This document shows positions 6,299-59,298 of a DNA stretch of 64,000 bases, in pieces. The DNA is from a virus: the IMG/VR virus record IMGVR_UViG_3300034033_000050; one strand, given 5' to 3'. The position numbers were made by a program, and so were the translations under genes. Positions within the stretch are counted from its first letter, which is position 1, and every line of letters starts with the position of its first letter. The notes beneath the pieces were generated by a model. It was not told where the DNA came from. It searched no databases and saw only the letters and a program-made list of their open reading frames with translations.

Positions 6299-6826
6299 CT
6301 AGAGCAAAGCCATTACTTTTAAAATAACACCTGATATCACTCCCAAAGCCTCGCAAAGATCAGACTTTGTACAACGAAAATAAAATACCCCCTCACACAT
6401 CGCAGTAATTTGCCATTCTTCGGCATTGCCAAGATTCTCAATTACAAGCTCAACCCCGTCCAAGGCATGGCTATTTCCACTTATTTTATCTTCGACATTG
6501 ATATTAATAGTAAACTCATTACTAGAGTCTTGAAACCCATCCTGCCAATATTCGCCACCCTTTGCAATATCAGAACTAAATAACAAAGCCTCAAGATGCC
6601 AACCAAGGGCCGTTCTATCAACATAGGGAAAAGCATAATCCAACAACGCACCGCATCCTAATTGCTCGCCTGCATCACCAGATTTGGAAAATGAAGAGAT
6701 ATAACCTCTGTTTTTATTAGCATCATTTGTAATATCTACCTGTCTTACAGCCTTACCATAAGTAAAAGTGATTTCTGTATCAATTGAACGGTTTTTGGAT
6801 ATGGGAACTATTTTTGAATTTGCCAT
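6299..6826 (-). CDS. hypothetical protein (175 aa)
   Basis: ORF with GC-N5-TATTAT promoter at 6857 and terminator. Confidence 0.75.
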   Translation of the reverse strand: MANSKIVPISKNRSIDTEITFTYGKAVRQVDITNDANKNRGYISSFSKSGDAGEQLGCGALLDYAFPYVDRTALGWHLEALLFSSDIAKGGEYWQDGFQDSSNEFTININVEDKISGNSHALDGVELVIENLGNAEEWQITAMCEGVFYFRCTKSDLCEALGVISGVILKVMALL

Positions 6827-6938: not shown

Positions 6939-7283
6939 TTAAGCGGCAATATCTTCTACCATAGCCATAAGTTCCGATGTCCGAACCGAAGAATATAATT
7001 TTCTCGCATCTGCTCTATTAATATGTTTTTGTCTTGATATTTTTATAATCAAACGATGTCTTATGACCCTATTTGCATTTGATTTAGCCTCCAAAGGTAT
7101 TAAGGCTTGCTTACATGCGTATAGCACAGCCTTTTCGATTGGGGACGACCAATCAGAATGAATTAAAGAATTAGCACAAACAGGATTGCTATCAAGCAAA
7201 GCTTGAACACGTTTATCTATTCGATTACAAATTCTATCCATGACCCTTAAGATTCTCGCTTCATCTGTTTTCCAATTACGCAT
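6939..7283 (-). CDS. hypothetical protein (114 aa)
   Basis: ORF with GT-N5-TATAAT at 7315 and GAGAG RBS. Confidence 0.7.
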   Translation of the reverse strand: MRNWKTDEARILRVMDRICNRIDKRVQALLDSNPVCANSLIHSDWSSPIEKAVLYACKQALIPLEAKSNANRVIRHRLIIKISRQKHINRADARKLYSSVRTSELMAMVEDIAA

Positions 7284-7335
7284 AATATTCTCTCGCTTTA
7301 ATTAATACTGATTAATTATAGATTGACCATATATA

Positions 7336-7626
7336 GAAAAAAAAGAATAATTAGAGTTTTGCATAGTGAGGAAGTGCTGCGATCCCTGGTAGGAGCGAAG
7401 CAAAGACCAGGGATCGCAGCAAGACGAACCACTCTGCTAGACATATTCGGTATAAAACCAAGTGGACGATACATCACACCTCAAACATGCCTATAAGCCA
7501 AAACTCTAATTATCTTTTCTGTAACCAACAACCAATCATAATAAAATGAAGAAACATTCTGGTTGCCAATCACCCTTAAAAACCCCAGCAACCATGCCCT
7601 TGCAAGTTAACACATTGGTTACTGAT
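7336..7626 (-). ncRNA. candidate ~290-nt structured ncRNA or ssDNA element
   Basis: Motif promoter at 7633-7645; no ORF of 60 aa or more; perfect 15-bp IR 7347-7361/7499-7513; perfect 15-bp inner stem 7376-7390/7406-7420; 8-bp IR 7521-7528/7615-7622; U8 run right after the outer stem. Confidence 0.6.
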
Positions 7627-7644
7627 GTTAATATTATAGTCACG

Positions 7645-7797
7645 CTATAAATCACCAGATTTAATTCTGGTTCTTAAATCGGTTTTGCGTGACTGTCGCA
7701 AAGCCTTACCACTTTTTACGTGGACAGACCCTTTGCCCATTAATGGATGATTCCAAAACAGATTTCTCACAACTTTCTTATTTTTATTGTTTTTCAT
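7645..7797 (-). CDS. small basic protein (50 aa; start re-set to MKNNK)
   Basis: Motif promoter at 7825; Lys/Arg-rich. Confidence 0.6.
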   Translation of the reverse strand: MKNNKNKKVVRNLFWNHPLMGKGSVHVKSGKALRQSRKTDLRTRIKSGDL

Positions 7798-7889
7798 TCC
7801 AATCACCACTAATATAATTACTAGATTATAGGCATGCCACAACCCCATAAAAAAACACTTTCATTTATAAGTAAAGTCACATATAATTA

Positions 7890-7964
7890 GCACTCTGCTG
7901 AATAAGCAGCTTAGAAAATAATATTTATAAAAATCCATTTACTGCTGAATAAGCAGCTTAGAAA
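7890..7964 (+). CRISPR. cas-less type I-F-like mini-array: two 28-nt repeats, one 19-nt spacer
   Basis: Repeats 7890-7917 and 7937-7964 share the identical 23-mer CTGCTGAATAAGCAGCTTAGAAA; the second matches the I-F consensus GTTCACTGCCGTATAGGCAGCTTAGAAA at 23/28 with a compensatory C-G to T-A stem change; TATAAT at 7882-7887; terminator at 8000-8025. Confidence 0.8.
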
Positions 7965-7999
7965 GTTATAATTATATTATTAACCACCCAATAGGTGGC

Positions 8000-8025
8000 A
8001 AAACCCGTTTTATAAACGGGTTTTT
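8000..8025. terminator. bidirectional intrinsic terminator
   Basis: AAAACCCGTTT-TAT-AAACGGGTTTT, T-runs on both strands. Confidence 0.8.
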
Positions 8026-8365
8026 ATTTGCCCACATGATTTAAAAATGAAGGTATATCAGGCTCACCACACTCAACCCAAGCTCCACTCTTCTCAGATA
8101 CCTCCAACCATATATCAACAGACGAGAACCACACCGTTCCATTGACAAACATATAGTCATCATCACTAGGGAACTCTTCATAATCAAAATCCAATTTATC
8201 TAGGAACTCATTAAAATCGCCGTGAGAATAACCCTGTTTCAGCATAATACAGTCTTTTTGTGGCAATAAAGGCTCATCCGAAACATGAACAATAGCACAT
8301 TTAATAGAATAATTACCGGCATCGGACAGAGCCTCCAACAGCTCTTGTTTTGCATTTCTAGACAT
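8024..8365 (-). CDS. hypothetical acidic protein (start re-set to MSRNAK)
   Basis: GGAG RBS before 8365. Confidence 0.7.
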   Translation of the reverse strand: MSRNAKQELLEALSDAGNYSIKCAIVHVSDEPLLPQKDCIMLKQGYSHGDFNEFLDKLDFDYEEFPSDDDYMFVNGTVWFSSVDIWLEVSEKSGAWVECGEPDIPSFLNHVGK

Positions 8366-8553
8366 TCTAAAACTCCAAATATTTATGTTAAAATCATTAT
8401 AGTGAAACCATATAATCAACCATTAATACAAATAAACCAATTCCACTAGCAACATCACATCCAACATTGATGATATATATTCGTTATTTATACAATCAAA
8501 TTTAAAACTATTGCCATTTATAAAATGTATTTTCATAAACATAATTTGATCGT

Positions 8554-49813: not shown

Positions 49814-50332
49814 TTAATCCTTAAAAAACATCAGCTCAGATGATAAAAAATCACTAAAACAAATTCCCACAGCATCAATTAAAGATTCTGTTTCACGCTG
49901 AAAACCATCCATTGATACTTGCCACACGCCATCCTTGAATAGAAAACCAATTTGAACTCCATCCATTCCAGTTATGGCATTTTTAGAACTAGAAATCATC
50001 TCTATAAAAGATATAGAAAGTGTAACTATATTAATTTCAGAACAAATGTTCTGCATATGCCGTATAAACATTTTTTTTAGTGAAGTAATTTCCTTTGAGA
50101 AAAGCGACATAAGAACAATTTTACCAATTGAATAATGATCTATGTAAGGACTTTCAGATAGAACGATAGGGACATGGCTACTTTTTGCATTTGAACCCGT
50201 ACCACCCTTAACATCCAATAAAGCACAACAATCCGCCTCGCCAGATAAATTCGTTACTGAAATATCAGAATGACAATCATTTGTAGAAATACTTAATTTA
50301 TAATTATTCATATGTTTCCTCAAATAAAACAT
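49814..50332 (-). CDS. hypothetical protein
   Basis: Intact ORF. Confidence 0.6.
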   Translation of the reverse strand: MFYLRKHMNNYKLSISTNDCHSDISVTNLSGEADCCALLDVKGGTGSNAKSSHVPIVLSESPYIDHYSIGKIVLMSLFSKEITSLKKMFIRHMQNICSEINIVTLSISFIEMISSSKNAITGMDGVQIGFLFKDGVWQVSMDGFQRETESLIDAVGICFSDFLSSELMFFKD

Positions 50333-51564: not shown

Positions 51565-53796
51565 TTAAAAATTCAAATCTAATGTGGTTTGCACATTATT
51601 TGTATTACTGTGATTGTTTTCGGTTGTTACACCATTTTCTAAACTCAAATCATTTATTTCTTGATGCACGAAACTAGAATTCAGTTCAGAAGCAACATCA
51701 ATTCTAGCTTTTAAAACATCTAAAGATGCAATCGTGTGACTTGTTCTATTTCGCAATGCTATATTTTCATTTTCATAACTCATCAAATTAATATCTGAAA
51801 CATCAATACTACCCTGGGTCTCATATCCTAAATCACCAATGTTGGACGCATTACTAGATTTAAATTCCATAAAATCAACATCAGTAACACCATCAAGACA
51901 ATCCTTTACGTCACAAACATCTATTTTGACTCCAGATTTAACAACAACTCCAATAAAATCTTTAAGAGATGATAAATCAGCCAACAATACATCTGATACA
52001 TCCTTAGCACTAACCACATCTCCATCGATTTTATTAGGTGCATTTTTACAAACAACAATAGCATCTTTAACATAAGCTATTGAATCTATTGTATCTGAAC
52101 TCAAAAAAGACAATTCTTTAAGTTTTAATTTTGCATTCCCTGAAATTAGTTCAATTCGTTTCTCAGAGAGACCACCTGATAATTTGCCTTCATCTATGTT
52201 AAATTCATTCATGTAAGAATCAATAACAGCAGAGTTAACACCAATATTAGAAAGCCGAGAAACGACATCAAGGAAACCAGGTTTTTCTCCCATTAATGGA
52301 TCAGTAAAACTAATGGATATTTGCTCAATTGGCTCAAGTAAAGAAATTCTAGATGTTAAAAATGCTTTTTGTAAAACCTCCATCTCATCTTGCTCCCAAT
52401 CAGTAGTAATCCCGCCCTCCACAAAATCCATTTTCGTAGCCTCCCCATCATCCCCCATGGTATCGTTAAGTGAAGATGTATTTAGATTTGAATAAGCTGC
52501 GTCAAGTTTAATAACTTTATCAAAAGACAGGTCGAGCGCATCAGCAATATCAGTATCACTTGGCTTTTTTTGAAACCGCGAATAATATTCTCTTTTATAC
52601 TTCTTAATCTTAAGTATATCAATCCTGTCCTTTTCTGGCACTACAACAGTATTAAACATGTTATTAGATGCATTTCTTATAAATAATTCAGCGTAATGAG
52701 TAGCGTAAGCATTGAGTCTATTCCCATTGGCAACCCTGTATCTTTCTATGCCTTGGGTATATCCAAGAACAGCAGCAGAAGATAATTCATTGCGAATATC
52801 GTTAGAAGGATGGGGAAAGTTTTTAACGCGCTTATTTACAATGGTATAGATCCAATTAATATTTGCTTTTAGTAGTGTCTCAACATTCTTTTTATTAGCC
52901 CTATCAAAAGAGTTCAACTCCATAATATGTGATTGAATTTGAGAATAGGACATATTAAATTTGTTACCTAATGCTTGTTTAAGATTATAGACTTTTAAAG
53001 CCGCTTCACTTGTTGTTTTTGTTAAAACGCTCCCAGAAACACGCTCTAAAGAGCTTTTAAATTCATCAAGTTTTTTATCAATCGGATTATCTTTTTGTTC
53101 AATATATGTTCTAAATTGTGGACCAGATAAATTACAATCATCAACCAATAATGTTCTCAATTCCAGTCCGAAAACAGCCATGTCTCGTGCCACAAGGTCT
53201 GAATTAACTTTAAAAGCACTTAATGCATCCTTAGAAAAAATTAGGCTTCTTGATTTTGCTCCTATTTGCTTAGATATTTTTTTCATACTGTCTAGATCAC
53301 CTGTTAACCGGGATTTCATGTGTTTGTGATATAAACGATCTATTTCCATAAATGCCTTGGATAAAACACTTACATCAACATCATTACTTTCATACTTATC
53401 TACATTCTCTAAAGCCACATCACTTGGCTCGTCCGTTTCCCTTTTATTGCTTATAAATTTTAGCTCAGTATCTGGATAAGTGCCGCTTATTACATCGGCG
53501 TAGTTAATTTCTTTATTGTGAATTTGTACTATGCGCCTATGTAACAAATCAACATTACGTGGCACCGAAAAATATTCAGAAACTGTGTCTCTCTTAATAT
53601 TGCGCATATCAATAAAAACATTGAATTCAGCCTCCGCACTTAAATAGTTGGCATTAGTCTTTTTAACAGCTAATGGCACATATTCTTTATCATTGGTTTT
53701 GAAAAATTCATCGGCAAGTTCATCAGACTCATCTTTAAACAAGTCATCACTCATTATTGCATCAAATTCCAAATCTACTTCAGCTTTATCATTCAT
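51565..53796 (-). CDS. highly diverged RpoD (sigma-70)-derived protein
   Basis: Region 1.2 (YLSAEAE), NCR (LLVDDCNL..PQF), region 2 (LLKANINWI...GYTQGIERY...AYATHY), region 3 (KPSDTDIADALDL...SSLNDTMGDD), split region 4 (LLEPIEQ...GLSEKRIELISGNAKLKL). Confidence 0.8.
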   Translation of the reverse strand: MNDKAEVDLEFDAIMSDDLFKDESDELADEFFKTNDKEYVPLAVKKTNANYLSAEAEFNVFIDMRNIKRDTVSEYFSVPRNVDLLHRRIVQIHNKEINYADVISGTYPDTELKFISNKRETDEPSDVALENVDKYESNDVDVSVLSKAFMEIDRLYHKHMKSRLTGDLDSMKKISKQIGAKSRSLIFSKDALSAFKVNSDLVARDMAVFGLELRTLLVDDCNLSGPQFRTYIEQKDNPIDKKLDEFKSSLERVSGSVLTKTTSEAALKVYNLKQALGNKFNMSYSQIQSHIMELNSFDRANKKNVETLLKANINWIYTIVNKRVKNFPHPSNDIRNELSSAAVLGYTQGIERYRVANGNRLNAYATHYAELFIRNASNNMFNTVVVPEKDRIDILKIKKYKREYYSRFQKKPSDTDIADALDLSFDKVIKLDAAYSNLNTSSLNDTMGDDGEATKMDFVEGGITTDWEQDEMEVLQKAFLTSRISLLEPIEQISISFTDPLMGEKPGFLDVVSRLSNIGVNSAVIDSYMNEFNIDEGKLSGGLSEKRIELISGNAKLKLKELSFLSSDTIDSIAYVKDAIVVCKNAPNKIDGDVVSAKDVSDVLLADLSSLKDFIGVVVKSGVKIDVCDVKDCLDGVTDVDFMEFKSSNASNIGDLGYETQGSIDVSDINLMSYENENIALRNRTSHTIASLDVLKARIDVASELNSSFVHQEINDLSLENGVTTENNHSNTNNVQTTLDLNF

Positions 53797-53798
53797 AA

Positions 53799-55232
53799 CT
53801 ACATTCCTGGACCCGTAGGTTTATCATCGGGTGATTCATCATCAGACTCGTCATCTGATGGCCCTTTAACAGAATTATCATTTGTGTCCTTTTCATAGGC
53901 TTCAATTAATTCTTCTGACAATACATTTATATCTTGTTCTTTCTCAACTACACCAGCAGAAATATTAAACACTTGTGATAAATTGATCCCCGTTAAATCT
54001 ACAACATCTCCATCAACGGGTTCAACATCATCTGCATTAGGTGTTATTTCGTCATGGGTTTCAGCATTCAAACTATGCCCACCCCCATCCATTATTAAGG
54101 CGTTATCTAACTCTGCAACATTATATAAATCAGCATTAATATTATTTGAAGTATCTTTATACTGCTCATTTATAGATTTAACCTCATCTGCTAAATTAGG
54201 ACTATCTAAATCCAATACAGGGCCATTCCTTTTGTCCGTTTCATATGCATTAATTAATTCAGCGGCATTTATAACCCCTGTATTATCAACTCTCGCCTCA
54301 TCTTCATGTTCAGATTCTATGTAAGCGGGTGCAGAAATGAGGATTTTATGTAAATTGTTTTCACTCAAATCAAGTTTATTATATAGAGCATCCCACTCTA
54401 TGCGTTTTTTATCCATTTCAAAACGCATCATGGGTTCATCACTGGCCTGAACATCTGTATTTAATTTATCGAAATCATCTCTAGACAAATCATTAACATT
54501 AAAAGCGAAAAACACCAAATCATGGGGATGGGCCTTATCATTGTTTATTAATGCATCGGTTAATATACTTATATTTGCATGAGGCATATTAGCCAGATCT
54601 GTGTATTTCATAATTGAATAATTATTAAATGGTATTTTTACCACATCACTTATCAACTCATTAACATCAACACCTGTTACACTAGCAAATCCTACAAGCT
54701 GATTTGATAAAACTGGGTTTTTATGATTAGAAACATCATAACCGCTAATTAATGATTTCTGTATAGAACCTAAATCTACACCATTTTTTGTTTTAGCAAA
54801 TTCCAAAACCTTATCTGGAGCGTTTTCTAACAAAATCTTGTGCTGCTCACAAATTAGAGATAAAACGCTTGTTGCACCTTTTGCGTGTTCCAAAAATTTG
54901 ACATATTTAGGTAGGCCAGCATCATCACCATACTTAACATTAAGTTCGTTTGCTTGATGCAATCTTAAGTCTTCATCAGTTGTGTGAGCTATATCCATAA
55001 GGTTTTTTTGAGAATCGGCCATTTTAAACAAAACAGCTTTGTTCACCATGAAGTCATTATTAGGATTGTTGACTATGAAGTAAAAATTATCTTCAAATGT
55101 TCCAATTTCGGCAATTCTATCTCTTATGCCAGGATAATCAAAACCTTCGACATTAGCACTAAAAACAAGCAAATCATGACCAGAGCCAGTTTTAAGTAAA
55201 TTTAATTCTTCTTGATATTCTTGTTCGTTCAT
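53799..55232 (-). CDS. acidic hypothetical protein, paralog of 55237-56466, ending KPTGPGM
   Basis: N-terminal LLKTGSGHDLLVF motif shared with the neighbour. Confidence 0.8.
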   Translation of the reverse strand: MNEQEYQEELNLLKTGSGHDLLVFSANVEGFDYPGIRDRIAEIGTFEDNFYFIVNNPNNDFMVNKAVLFKMADSQKNLMDIAHTTDEDLRLHQANELNVKYGDDAGLPKYVKFLEHAKGATSVLSLICEQHKILLENAPDKVLEFAKTKNGVDLGSIQKSLISGYDVSNHKNPVLSNQLVGFASVTGVDVNELISDVVKIPFNNYSIMKYTDLANMPHANISILTDALINNDKAHPHDLVFFAFNVNDLSRDDFDKLNTDVQASDEPMMRFEMDKKRIEWDALYNKLDLSENNLHKILISAPAYIESEHEDEARVDNTGVINAAELINAYETDKRNGPVLDLDSPNLADEVKSINEQYKDTSNNINADLYNVAELDNALIMDGGGHSLNAETHDEITPNADDVEPVDGDVVDLTGINLSQVFNISAGVVEKEQDINVLSEELIEAYEKDTNDNSVKGPSDDESDDESPDDKPTGPGM

Positions 55233-55236
55233 AATA

Positions 55237-56466
55237 TTAACTTACACCAGGTCCAGTATTAGTCGGTTTATCGCCTTGTTTAAGTTCTGCCTGTTTAGCT
55301 TCTTCATTCTCAACATCTTTATTTAGGGATTCTTGCAATTCTTCATGAACATAAGGGGAATCCATTTTCATTTGGCGCTCAATAGAACTTATAACTTCCA
55401 ATTTGGGTTGGGAATTACTCATTGCTTGCATATCCTTATCCAAAGCCCCCATTAATTCATCGGCGTCATAAGGAGTGTCTGGATTTTGTAGAGCATCTTC
55501 CAAATAAACGAGATTGCTGGTAAATGGAAATTTACCATCAGTTGCCTCAGCAACATAATTTAATGTCTCAACCAAAGTTTTATCACCACCGTCATAATGT
55601 TGCATTAAGCTACTATAAAGCTTAATATTATTCATCTCACCAAAAATATCTTGCTCTATGGCATAAGCAATAGTAAATGACATAGAATGTGCATCATAAC
55701 TAGCTTTTCCACCTGACAAAACATACTGATTATTAAAAGAATCTATCAAATGATTTAAACCAAGATTTTGAATGCTTAAATCGGGTTTTAATTCTTCAAT
55801 TAAAGATAGTAAATTATTATTAAAAAAAGGAAGGTATACGTGACTATTAACGTTATCTACCTTTTCATCTGAATTCTTAACTGCGTTTAAAATATCAACA
55901 GCAGAAGCTAGAACAGGTTCAAACCCTAAAGTTGGATCTATATTCTGTAAATCCTCAATTGCAACATGAGCATTATCAAAATCATAATTAATGCCTGATA
56001 TGTTAATATTTAAATCATCTAGAGGTTGAAAAAAACGTGATGCATAATTAACCAAGGTTTTATGGGCTTTATGTAAATCCACACCAGGAACAAAACGTAT
56101 AAATTCACGCATCAACAATGCAGCACCTGGTCTATTTTCAAGATGCTTCTCAAAATGCCCAGAAACCAAATCAAGCACATTATTTGGATTAACATTTAGG
56201 TTAGATACCAAGTTATTAAAAAAAGAGGCGCTAGAATAAAAAGCTGCTCTATCTTCACGGTCTTGTCCATCATGATAAAATTCCAACAATTCAACACATT
56301 GCTTATTTATTTGGGGAAGTACATCATCACCAGATTTGTTTATTCTTTCAATTAATTTACCGACCATGGCTTGACCACCATGCTCACGTATAAAAACCAT
56401 GCAATCAGGTCCTGATCCACTTGCTATAAGCTTGTTTTGCCTTTTAAAAAATTCAGGATTTGCCAT
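55237..56466 (-). CDS. acidic hypothetical protein ending KPTNTGPGVS
   Basis: N-terminal LIASGSGPDCMVF motif. Confidence 0.8.
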   Translation of the reverse strand: MANPEFFKRQNKLIASGSGPDCMVFIREHGGQAMVGKLIERINKSGDDVLPQINKQCVELLEFYHDGQDREDRAAFYSSASFFNNLVSNLNVNPNNVLDLVSGHFEKHLENRPGAALLMREFIRFVPGVDLHKAHKTLVNYASRFFQPLDDLNINISGINYDFDNAHVAIEDLQNIDPTLGFEPVLASAVDILNAVKNSDEKVDNVNSHVYLPFFNNNLLSLIEELKPDLSIQNLGLNHLIDSFNNQYVLSGGKASYDAHSMSFTIAYAIEQDIFGEMNNIKLYSSLMQHYDGGDKTLVETLNYVAEATDGKFPFTSNLVYLEDALQNPDTPYDADELMGALDKDMQAMSNSQPKLEVISSIERQMKMDSPYVHEELQESLNKDVENEEAKQAELKQGDKPTNTGPGVS

Positions 56467-56468
56467 AA

Positions 56469-57959
56469 TTAACTCATGCTCGGTGCTGATGTTGGAACCG
56501 CTGGAATAACTTGAGGAACCTCAGAGAACTCAGCTTTCATTTCAGCTTGAATTTCTGGAACCTCTTCTTTGATAAATTTTACAGCCTCTACAAGCCCAAT
56601 CTGGATTTTTTTATGGAACGATTCCGTTTCCTCACCGGGCAAACTTTGTATTGCTGCAAGTGGTGTATTCTCATCATGTTGCGCTAATTTCTTTGCAAAC
56701 ATGGATAGGGTAGGGATGCCTTTATTCTTACCTTTTAAACCACCCATCAATGCAAGTTTGTCAATAGCACCTTCTGAATTTTTGGTGGTTGCTCTTGCAT
56801 ACCAAACCATCGCCTTTGAAACAACAGTTCCTTTATTAATTAAATTAGAAAGATGCTCATTATTGTTTTCCAAACAACCCAAAACCTTAGAACATTTCCC
56901 AGCTATCGACCACAAAGCAGCAGCACTTGATTCTGCATCCCCAATATAAGACATTATGTTTTGAGCACTGGTATCCAATTCCACATTTTCAAAACCAAGT
57001 GCTGATGTAAGCATAACAGCTCCACTTTCAGCAATTATATCTTCAAAATTATTATCATCATTATCCATGGCACTATGCAACCTGTTATCTCGCTTGAAAC
57101 CACCTGTTGCTTTTATGAATTCTCTTGCTTGTATTGAAGTGTATTCCAAGATTGCCTGCTTATCTTTATCTTCAATATTAGATGAATCTATTCCAAATTC
57201 AATAGGATCACGAATAAGCAATTTATCATTTACAGCATCATATTTACCAAGATGAGCTGATTGTTTAAGTAAGTCAACATCAACACCATTGTCAGCAATT
57301 AATTCCACTAATGCTTTATGGCTTTCATTTAAAGGCACTTCGTTAATAGAAGGAATAATCATCATGTCAGCGGGCAATCCTGCAAATTCAGCGGCATTGA
57401 AAACCGTATACTCTCTAAATTTACCAGGGACTATTTGACTTACAGTATCTCTATCTGGGTTATAAGACATGCCATTAATGCTTTCAGGCTCTCCCTTAAC
57501 CCTTGCATTTCTTAAATCTTCTTCAGTAACATCTTCAAAACCTTTAACCTTTAATCTGAATTTCTGAATTATAGAAAGTTTTTCCATTTCAACATTGAAA
57601 GATAAAGGGAAAAAAGAAGGGCAGCCCATGTTATCACCTGGCTCAATCGGTACACCATTTTTATTGGAGTAGTAACCACCAGCAGCTTTTGCTTGAGAAA
57701 GAGTTAAGAATACATTTGAAACTTTATTACCATGACCTTTGACCGTAGACAGCCATTTAGAATATATCTTCATAAACATGCTATTTCTAGATGAAAAGTG
57801 CGCCTTGTTATCACGAAGATAACCACCAATTATATTGCCAGCAAAAGAATGTGTAAGAGGATGAGAGCCAGTTGCGGTGATCTCATTCATTTTTAATACG
57901 ATACCATCAAGCGCCTCATCAATTCCTGCGCCTAAATTAGCGTTTTTGTGTGTTGTCAT
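56469..57959 (-). CDS. ardC: ArdC-family antirestriction ssDNA-binding protein (start re-set to MTTHK)
   Basis: FSSRN, LTLSQAKAAGG, YTVFNAAEFAGLP, YDAVNDKLLI, EDIIAESGAVML; HExxH degenerate (REFIK). Confidence 0.7.
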   Translation of the reverse strand: MTTHKNANLGAGIDEALDGIVLKMNEITATGSHPLTHSFAGNIIGGYLRDNKAHFSSRNSMFMKIYSKWLSTVKGHGNKVSNVFLTLSQAKAAGGYYSNKNGVPIEPGDNMGCPSFFPLSFNVEMEKLSIIQKFRLKVKGFEDVTEEDLRNARVKGEPESINGMSYNPDRDTVSQIVPGKFREYTVFNAAEFAGLPADMMIIPSINEVPLNESHKALVELIADNGVDVDLLKQSAHLGKYDAVNDKLLIRDPIEFGIDSSNIEDKDKQAILEYTSIQAREFIKATGGFKRDNRLHSAMDNDDNNFEDIIAESGAVMLTSALGFENVELDTSAQNIMSYIGDAESSAAALWSIAGKCSKVLGCLENNNEHLSNLINKGTVVSKAMVWYARATTKNSEGAIDKLALMGGLKGKNKGIPTLSMFAKKLAQHDENTPLAAIQSLPGEETESFHKKIQIGLVEAVKFIKEEVPEIQAEMKAEFSEVPQVIPAVPTSAPSMS

Positions 57960-58100
57960 TATTTTTTCTCTTCTACAGTAAGCCTTATGCTTTGAGTCGA
58001 GTTTAATACAAAAGTATAAAAAACAAAAGAAAAAAAAGGGTTGAAAATTAAAAGTTATTAAAAATAACCAAATTTCAACCCCTGATGCCAAATAAAAATA

Positions 58101-58289
58101 CTAATGTAAAGTTTTTGGTATGTCTAAATCAACATTAACTTCACCAAATTTGTTTTTGAAAAACATATGAGTACCATCACTTAGCATAATCAGTTTTATT
58201 AATGCAGCAGAGACTGCTGTTACCGCCTCCTCTTTTGACATACCAATTACAGCACTATTAATTGCCTCATAAATATTAGATCCACCCAT
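58101..58289 (-). CDS. small hypothetical protein (start re-set to MGGSN)
   Basis: GGAGG RBS. Confidence 0.65.
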   Translation of the reverse strand: MGGSNIYEAINSAVIGMSKEEAVTAVSAALIKLIMLSDGTHMFFKNKFGEVNVDLDIPKTLH

Positions 58290-58329
58290 CGAACCTCCTT
58301 TTATATTATTATCAACAATCATAGTTCGG

Positions 58330-59298
58330 CTATTTTTCCGAAGCCTTAATGTCGGCGCGTGAAATATTATTTTTATCATTAACAAACGCACAAGGCATGT
58401 ACTCAGCATTAATATGTGATGGACCACAAACCTGCATAGACCAAAAAGACTCATTACTTTTATTGGTCACATACTCTAACAAATAAACAGACTCGCGATA
58501 AAACTCAACACCGTTATGAGTGTACAAATCACTTGTTTTAGCGGTCTTTGCTATTCTTTTATGTGGAATAAAAGTATCAAGAGTAGGGGCAACAACTACT
58601 TTAATAGAATCATTTGCCCACATATCTTTTTCTTGCATATGATTAATAATGCCAACAAATACCTCACTATTTACAATGTTTTTAATGGCTTCGCCAATAT
58701 TGTCATTCAAAGTGGATGAATAAAAACCGATATTATATCCAACACAATTTTTGTCATTCTGAATTACCTGGACCAAAACACCGTATGAACCAAGCAAACC
58801 TTTTTTCTTGGCATCATCAGCAATTCCAGCAATGTTGTCTAACAAAGAATCTTTTGTGACACATACCATTTGGTTTTCTGATTTAACCAAAGTGATTCTT
58901 TGTGATTTCTTACCCTTGTTATCAACTGGTGCATGAACTATGGCTGGAGACTTTCCCACTACACATTTTTTAATATCTCTACAAGCAATATTGCCCCATC
59001 TGTATTCGTATAAACCACTAACCATCGATGCCCCTTGAATATAATAGACATTGCCTATATCCAATCTTGCCATATGACTAGAATCACGTATATCAGCAAA
59101 AGTTGCTCTAGATGCTGACATACCAAATGTACTCAGCTTAAATCCAAGTTGCTCACCAACCGGAGCCCTACCTTCAATGCGCCTGCCCAAAATTAATTGA
59201 TTAGCATCATCAAACCCATCAACCAATATAAAAATATTTTCACCAAAAACGCCAGAAGAACTTTTAAGCCCTCTTAACCCACTTAATAAATCACTCAT
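58330..59298 (-). CDS. hypothetical protein (322 aa)
   Basis: Long intact ORF, GGAG RBS. Confidence 0.75.
   Translation of the reverse strand: MSDLLSGLRGLKSSSGVFGENIFILVDGFDDANQLILGRRIEGRAPVGEQLGFKLSTFGMSASRATFADIRDSSHMARLDIGNVYYIQGASMVSGLYEYRWGNIACRDIKKCVVGKSPAIVHAPVDNKGKKSQRITLVKSENQMVCVTKDSLLDNIAGIADDAKKKGLLGSYGVLVQVIQNDKNCVGYNIGFYSSTLNDNIGEAIKNIVNSEVFVGIINHMQEKDMWANDSIKVVVAPTLDTFIPHKRIAKTAKTSDLYTHNGVEFYRESVYLLEYVTNKSNESFWSMQVCGPSHINAEYMPCAFVNDKNNISRADIKASEK

Follow-up and report, generated by a model that had tools for sequence, protein, structure and literature searches.

A candidate structured RNA unit of retron-like shape in a putative counter-defence region of a large plasmid- or phage-like element

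The RNAs of retrons have complementary ends, short stem-loops in their msr part and one long hairpin in their msd part (PMC8632793). Their defence relies on a complex of reverse transcriptase, RNA and msDNA which keeps a toxin in check. In types I-A and I-C1, the msDNA scaffolds and also restrains the effector, and the defence is triggered by phage nucleases (PMC12475279, PMC12916289). RNA mimics are an established means of counter-defence. Solitary CRISPR repeat units are known RNA anti-CRISPRs (Racr; PMC10651486), and the pseudo-ToxI of phage phiTE acts against ToxIN (reviewed in PMC13670838). In each of these cases, the RNA component of a host defence system is found on a mobile element without the rest of the system. 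As factors acting against retrons, Rad and tRNAs have been described (10.1101/2023.03.15.532788), and the counter-measures in the literature searched are proteins or tRNAs; RNA mimics aimed at retrons were not found there, subscription papers being thinly covered. The unit described here resembles Racr and pseudo-ToxI in being an RNA part carried alone; unlike theirs, its target would be a retron.

The unit lies in a stretch of 64 kb (the window), which represents 64 of the 143 kb of its contig. Nearly all genes of the window are located on the minus strand, which is G/T-rich throughout. The encoded proteins include a sigma-70-like protein, a class II RNR, an RNR small chain, RecD2, a DNA methylase and a protein matching the ArdC-like anti-restriction family, and none of the window proteins tested matched a virion or conjugation family. 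The carrier is a large element which could be either plasmid-like or phage-like. It has almost no relatives, with the genes beside the RNA unit being singletons and the sigma-like protein having a single homolog (62% identity). No tRNA or tmRNA was found.

The sequence CTATAAT is present in the window in 30 copies on the minus strand versus five on the plus strand, and a Shine-Dalgarno (SD) sequence with an ORF lies 25-44 nt downstream of 19 of these minus-strand copies. Because of this strand bias and this position, CTATAAT appears to act as the promoter of the element. Across the window (1999-63448) the motif often reads TAGC or GC, N4-5, CTATAAT and is near-palindromic. One copy (7639-7633, minus strand) belongs to a TAGC-N4-CTATAAT promoter at 7633-7647 (minus) with a predicted +1 near 7626; a preliminary description of this DNA had placed the promoter at 7633-7645, with the same +1. 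A predicted non-coding transcript of about 290 nt (7337-7626, minus) would end at a run of eight U residues (U8, 7337-7344, minus), the probable 3′ end. This U8 had been described as following a GC-rich hairpin; it is indeed present, but lies 30 nt past that hairpin and directly after the a2-like arm described below. The next promoter motif (7315-7329, minus; box at 7321) bounds the unit and serves an ORF of 114 aa (7283-6939, minus). In line with the earlier claim, the unit contains no ORF of at least 60 aa, the largest one having 53 aa (7477-7316, minus).

Folding of the whole unit as minus-strand RNA yielded -111.8 kcal/mol (z -8.14), and none of 100 shuffled sequences folded as well. Judged from these predictions, the unit is a real and unusually strong candidate for a structured-RNA gene. 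The terminal inverted repeat noted previously (7499-7513/7347-7361) is confirmed as perfect over 15 bp, with a pair probability of 1.0, and extends to 20 nt at 90% identity. The closing stem consists of an a1-like arm (7499-7518, minus) and an a2-like arm (7342-7361, minus); beyond the perfect 15 bp it reaches about 20 bp if a single bulge is allowed. At the msd position this stem encloses hairpin B (7375-7421, minus), whose perfect Watson-Crick stem comprises 16 bp (7375-7390/7406-7421), rather than the 15 bp at 7376-7420 reported before, and closes a loop of 15 nt. It is the longest perfect hairpin in the 64 kb. The motif GCGAAGC, which is known to form a DNA mini-hairpin (PMC13037366), is present in its loop on the plus strand (7395-7401), as described. 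A spacer of 13 nt (7362-7374, minus), which contains TTCCTC, separates hairpin B from a2. Two retron hallmarks are therewith present, namely complementary ends (a1/a2) and a single long msd hairpin next to a2.

The msr position is occupied by hairpin A (7438-7493, minus), a helix of 56 nt with 22 pairs, seven of them G-U, which folds only as minus-strand RNA. A short CCACT/AGTGG hairpin had been proposed for this region. The complementarity exists, but it spans 27 nt and has a pair probability of at most 0.001, and the region folds instead into the G-U-rich hairpin (7493-7438). An inner 9-bp stem-loop with a G-UAU-C loop (7460-7481, minus) is nearly isoenergetic with the minimum free energy (MFE) structure; the corresponding fold with two small loops reaches -109.8 versus -110.0 kcal/mol, with pair probabilities of 0.33-0.44. 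The 5′ domain (7521-7626, minus) forms two G-U-containing hairpins in the MFE structure. The 8-bp stem with an inner GGTTGC/GCAACC hairpin that had been assigned to it is complementary in sequence, but has a pair probability of at most 0.001 in the minus-strand RNA, and the earlier 5′ fold is the MFE structure of the plus strand. Forcing the earlier helices onto the minus-strand RNA costs 8.3 kcal/mol (5′ fold) and 6.5 kcal/mol. The 5′ domain consists of four mutually complementary blocks with two alternative folds 8.3 kcal/mol apart, which might possibly represent a switch or a folding intermediate.

The strands differ clearly in their folding. Hairpin A reaches -20.7 kcal/mol (z -2.8) as minus-strand RNA versus -5.4 kcal/mol (z +0.7) as plus-strand RNA, and the 5′ domain -34.8 kcal/mol (z -3.8) versus -19.7 kcal/mol (z -1.9). 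As plus-strand DNA, hairpin A yields only -1.4 kcal/mol (z +1.1) and the 5′ domain a z-score of -1.3. G-U pairs number seven in hairpin A and four and six in the 5′ helices, versus none among the 18 pairs of hairpin B. The G/T richness of the minus strand in itself favours G-U folds, and the z-scores control for composition. Because of the strand energies, the z-scores and the G-U pairs, most of the unit looks as if it was selected as minus-strand RNA. The folding energy of hairpin B shows no strand preference; as DNA it reaches equal stability on either strand, and its loop is purine-rich on the plus strand, which would be the cDNA strand, around GCGAAGC. This split between G-U-rich arms and a G-U-free hairpin B resembles retron RNA, in which the msr remains RNA and the msd is turned into DNA. 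The analogy is only suggestive, as perfect hairpins also occur in ordinary RNAs.

The preliminary description had proposed a retron-like topology without a reverse transcriptase (RT) and a comparison with covariance models of retron RNAs, which was carried out for two types. A model built from 19 type I-A retron RNAs (R1) also detects another 15 clade-1 RNAs, with scores of 40-152 bits. On the unit it gave 9.3 bits (E 3.9, with such E-values being rough) and matched a generic hairpin only, which is not significant against the 40-152 bits of true members. A model from 29 type I-C1 RNAs (R2) gave a likewise not significant 6.8 bits (rough E-value 4.6), and a reciprocal model of the unit itself (R3) was searched against about 110 RT loci and against 150 genomes, in both cases with no match. 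The 64-kb window contains no match to an RT motif or profile, and a PADLOC search of five flanking ORFs yielded no effector. As R1, R2 and R3 were all negative and the window contains no RT match, the unit is neither a retron nor a member of the modelled I-A and I-C1 RNA families. The earlier idea of a structured RNA of retron-like topology, standing alone in a window that lacks an RT, is thus supported, but these tests do not support membership among the retron RNAs, the branch motif being only half present. No Rfam 15 family reached its gathering threshold on the unit, and in the eight of twelve parts of the retron census compared by eye (types III-A, IV, V, VI and IX-XIII) no clear match was seen.

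Several short features nevertheless recall individual retron types. With type I-C1 RNAs (Eco2/Ec67; PMC12916289, census 10.1101/2024.01.25.577267) the unit shares, at the same spacing, an a1-like 12-mer, a U-rich linker and the 9-bp stem-loop with the G-UAU-C loop, which resembles the msr stem-loop bound by the RT. A TG-WWT-CR loop closing at least eight pairs is found at two sites in 128 kb, one of them at the msr position of the unit, and such a loop is present in nine of the 29 I-C1 RNAs. A position-specific scoring matrix of the I-C1 msr ranks position 7499 second of about 128,000, at only 4.9 bits, and nhmmer with the I-C1 msr profile missed the unit. Unlike in I-C1, the invariant branch-site A-G-A reads A-U-G, the a1-like 12-mer lacks an I-C1-type a2 partner, there is no RT-TOPRIM gene, and the msd-like hairpin is perfect instead of imperfect. 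With the clade-1 types I-A and II-A1 (Eco4, Eco7, Sen2; PMC12475279) it shares a similar length, a perfect msd hairpin and a pyrimidine-rich RNA loop (87% pyrimidine versus a mean of 65% in 32 clade-1 retrons). The hairpin B loop also matches the I-A loop motif at seven of eight positions (random rate 0.0016, composition-kept shuffles 0.068), and TTCCTC precedes a2 as in many type I-A retrons (random rate 0.0006, composition-kept shuffles 0.023); these P-values are optimistic, as the motifs were picked after inspection and the matches point to different retron types. In contrast to these types, the unit lacks the conserved msr core of type I-A, the UUAG branch motif, an RT and PtuA/PtuB. At the end of the a1/a2 stem G7498 faces G7362, and the base preceding the putative branching G is a G, whereas it is an A in all 48 real I-A and I-C1 RNAs, a count limited to these two types. 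The short features would agree with a retron type that is diverged or was not modelled, but equally with chance similarity on a generic fold. The a2 arm also resembles the I-A termination segment, and the arms of hairpin A resemble the promoter motif; both matches are short and AT-rich and were set aside.

Homologs of the unit could not be detected. BLAST searches against phages, plasmids and E. coli genomes yielded nothing, as did exact-pattern scans of metagenomes, and all matches from such scans of viral contigs were unstructured and attributable to chance. A DNA search of 401 genomes produced four short matches (E 0.003-0.009), which equals chance expectation, with no RT nearby. The neighbouring proteins 6299-6826 and 6939-7283 have no relatives among the sequences searched, the relatives of protein 8024-8419 share only about 30-50% identity, and neither RNR-anchored loci (33-56%) nor the related contig in SRR29593758 (L246) matched the unit. 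Three near-identical DNA sequencing rows, probably from one data set, contain a 182-nt contig identical to 7353-7534 without variants, and among the sequencing runs no RNA data set was listed as containing the unit. Any claim of a decoy made here would rest on one sequence.

A retron-type RNA without an RT was found on another mobile genome. Acinetobacter phage Presley (KF669658), a lytic N4-like member of the Schitoviridae with a complete genome of 77.8 kb, carries at about 50159-50329 (L020:3505-3675, plus strand) a type I-A msr-like RNA which R1 scores at 41.1 bits (E 2e-7). Its position is intergenic, with gp78 on one side and the virion RNA polymerase on the other, and a search of the complete genome yielded no RT. 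Its msd arm is imperfect, and its a1 also pairs locally. At least at the level of sequence, Presley shows that RT-less retron RNAs occur on lytic phages, whatever their function. Like the unit, the Presley RNA is an intergenic retron-type RNA on a mobile genome without RT; unlike the unit, it clearly belongs to type I-A by sequence and appears to be the cleaner candidate for an RNA anti-retron. Both share a 9-nt word in the msd loop, and their overall likeness is not significant, with 57 of 500 shuffles being as good. As a contrast to Presley, the filamentous Vibrio phage PQ189325 (11.5 kb), which gave a similar match, carries a complete type I-A retron consisting of RNA, RT, ATPase and PtuB.

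The surroundings of the unit also deserve attention. About 250 nt away, a pair of solitary CRISPR repeats of type I-F (7895-7964, plus strand), separated by an AT-rich spacer of 19 nt, forms a Racr-like candidate RNA anti-CRISPR, and hairpins follow at about 7982-8024. Together with the ArdC-like match and the DNA methylase, these repeats place the unit in a candidate counter-defence region. The type I-F repeats further suggest a proteobacterial host. A CreTA-like link, in which the spacer of the mini-array would target the promoter of the unit, is not supported, as no CC-PAM target is present there, and no good CC-PAM target of this spacer was found in the window.

Against this background, our leading interpretation, to which we assign a probability of roughly 0.38, is that the unit is a separately transcribed RNA, either derived from a retron msr-msd or merely shaped like one, which is used against a host retron. 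The promoter of the element would produce an RNA of about 290 nt ending at U8. Its 3′ 180 nt are predicted (z -8) to fold into the a1/a2 closing stem around a G-U-rich msr-like arm and an msd-like hairpin, and the RT of a host retron might bind the msr-like arm. It could then copy hairpin B into about 70 nt of extra msDNA, which would keep the effector neutralised or soak up the trigger. Alternatively, the RNA could be a dead-end ligand which ties up the RT without priming. The latter is slightly favoured, as the branch site is imperfect. Since msDNA restrains the effector and phage nucleases trigger the defence, either route could dampen the latter. The role left for the 5′ domain would be to stabilise the RNA, unless it is removed by processing. 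In comparison with its earlier formulation, the decoy idea is strengthened by the anti-defence character of the surroundings and by the RT-less msr on Presley, whereas R1, R2 and R3, which did not bear out retron membership, speak against it. A wider generalisation is more doubtful, namely that RT-less retron RNAs serve phages and plasmids as anti-retron factors, recognisable in Presley and diverged or chimeric in the present unit, which RTs would bind or copy while the defence stays silent. If true, RNA mimicry would extend from CRISPR and ToxIN to retrons, and small intergenic RNAs could switch retrons off, which would be relevant to retron editing and to the choice of therapy phages. Should it prove unrelated to retrons, the unit would still represent an RNA gene of unclassified type, folded very strongly and situated in a counter-defence region.

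The strongest competitor, which is possible but which we consider less likely than a retron decoy, is a structured sRNA unrelated to retrons, for example a protein-binding decoy for another defence that uses RNA (a DRT or a type III toxin-antitoxin system), or a regulator, e.g., of the sigma factor of the element. Its own promoter, the U8 and the RNA-strand-specific folding would all be expected of such an sRNA, with closing stem and U8 simply protecting and terminating the RNA, and it would agree with the failure of both retron models, the lack of an Rfam family and the sigma-like protein encoded by the element. It leaves unexplained, however, the G-U-free perfect hairpin with GCGAAGC in the loop of the cDNA strand as well as the retron-like motifs. 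Moreover, antisense targets outside the unit do not exceed 12 nt in the window, and for a sigma-directed regulator of the 6S kind the fold is branched, whereas 6S RNA is expected to be rod-shaped.

That the unit acts as DNA while the element is transferred or replicated, its plus strand being a signal for single-stranded initiation or a single-stranded promoter, is improbable, and this part of the preliminary description has been weakened. GCGAAGC-type mini-hairpins occur in the phage G4 origin, RSF1010 ssiA and N4 promoters (PMC13037366), and, as in the G4 origin and ssiA, the mini-hairpin motif of the unit sits at the tip of a GC-rich stem, which in the unit is equally stable as DNA on either strand. 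In contrast to those signals, the other helices of the unit are mostly specific to RNA of the opposite strand, with hairpin A and the 5′ domain barely folding as plus-strand DNA. The likeness to the G4 origin is not significant (65 of 500 shuffles scored at least as high), a plasmid match is lacking, and a promoter and a U8 would be superfluous for a DNA function. A 32-nt inverted repeat (75%) joining both flanking promoters might speak for a DNA element, but the near-palindromic promoter motif allows each copy to pair with any other once the DNA is single-stranded, e.g., 7300-7331 with 7635-7666, so that this pairing is explained by the near-dyad symmetry of the motif.

Also quite improbable is that the unit supplies the RNA for a complete system, retron-like or of another RT-RNA kind, whose RT is encoded elsewhere on the 143-kb contig and acts in trans. 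The RT search covered 64 of these 143 kb, and retron RNA and RT do work from separate cassettes in editing constructs. In those of the collected retron loci in which the RNA was located, however, this RNA lies within about 1.5 kb upstream of the RT, while both ORFs neighbouring the unit are short and match no RT or effector family. We regard with equal scepticism the notion of a MITE-like non-autonomous mobile repeat or a decaying, functionless relic. The terminal inverted repeats of 15-20 bp and the absence of homologs wherever searched would fit, but the helices are still perfect and the unit is neatly bounded by promoter and U8. Target duplications and further copies, which the preliminary description had named as signs of a MITE, are missing, as the unit is single-copy in the 64-kb window and lacks a target-site duplication.

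The least probable reading is a repressed mRNA for a small membrane peptide, comparable to a type I toxin or to the hybrid RNA of type VI retrons, which hide a toxin ORF in their RNA (bioRxiv 10.1101/2025.10.22.683967): although GAGGTG, as an SD sequence hidden in hairpin A, directly precedes the start of the 52-53-aa ORF (7477-7316), which ends hydrophobic, and although the 5′ domain has two folds, the SD-to-start spacing is too short, Pfam yielded no match, the ORF extends across a2, U8 and the perfect hairpin, and it terminates only within the -10 box of the next promoter.

Some additional observations were made in passing. Among the retron loci, the region at L051:910 contains an RT-TOPRIM gene of type I-C which is interrupted by an in-frame TAA about one third along its length, possibly a broken retron. 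The operon of the sigma-like protein together with the ArdC-like gene (window 51565-59298) has a syntenic relative in one Logan assembly (SRR29593758). Directly upstream of the RNA unit, a very basic ORF of 50 aa (7648-7797, minus) with its own promoter at 7831 had no match in Pfam, and we presume it to be reminiscent of ArfA-like ribosome-rescue peptides.
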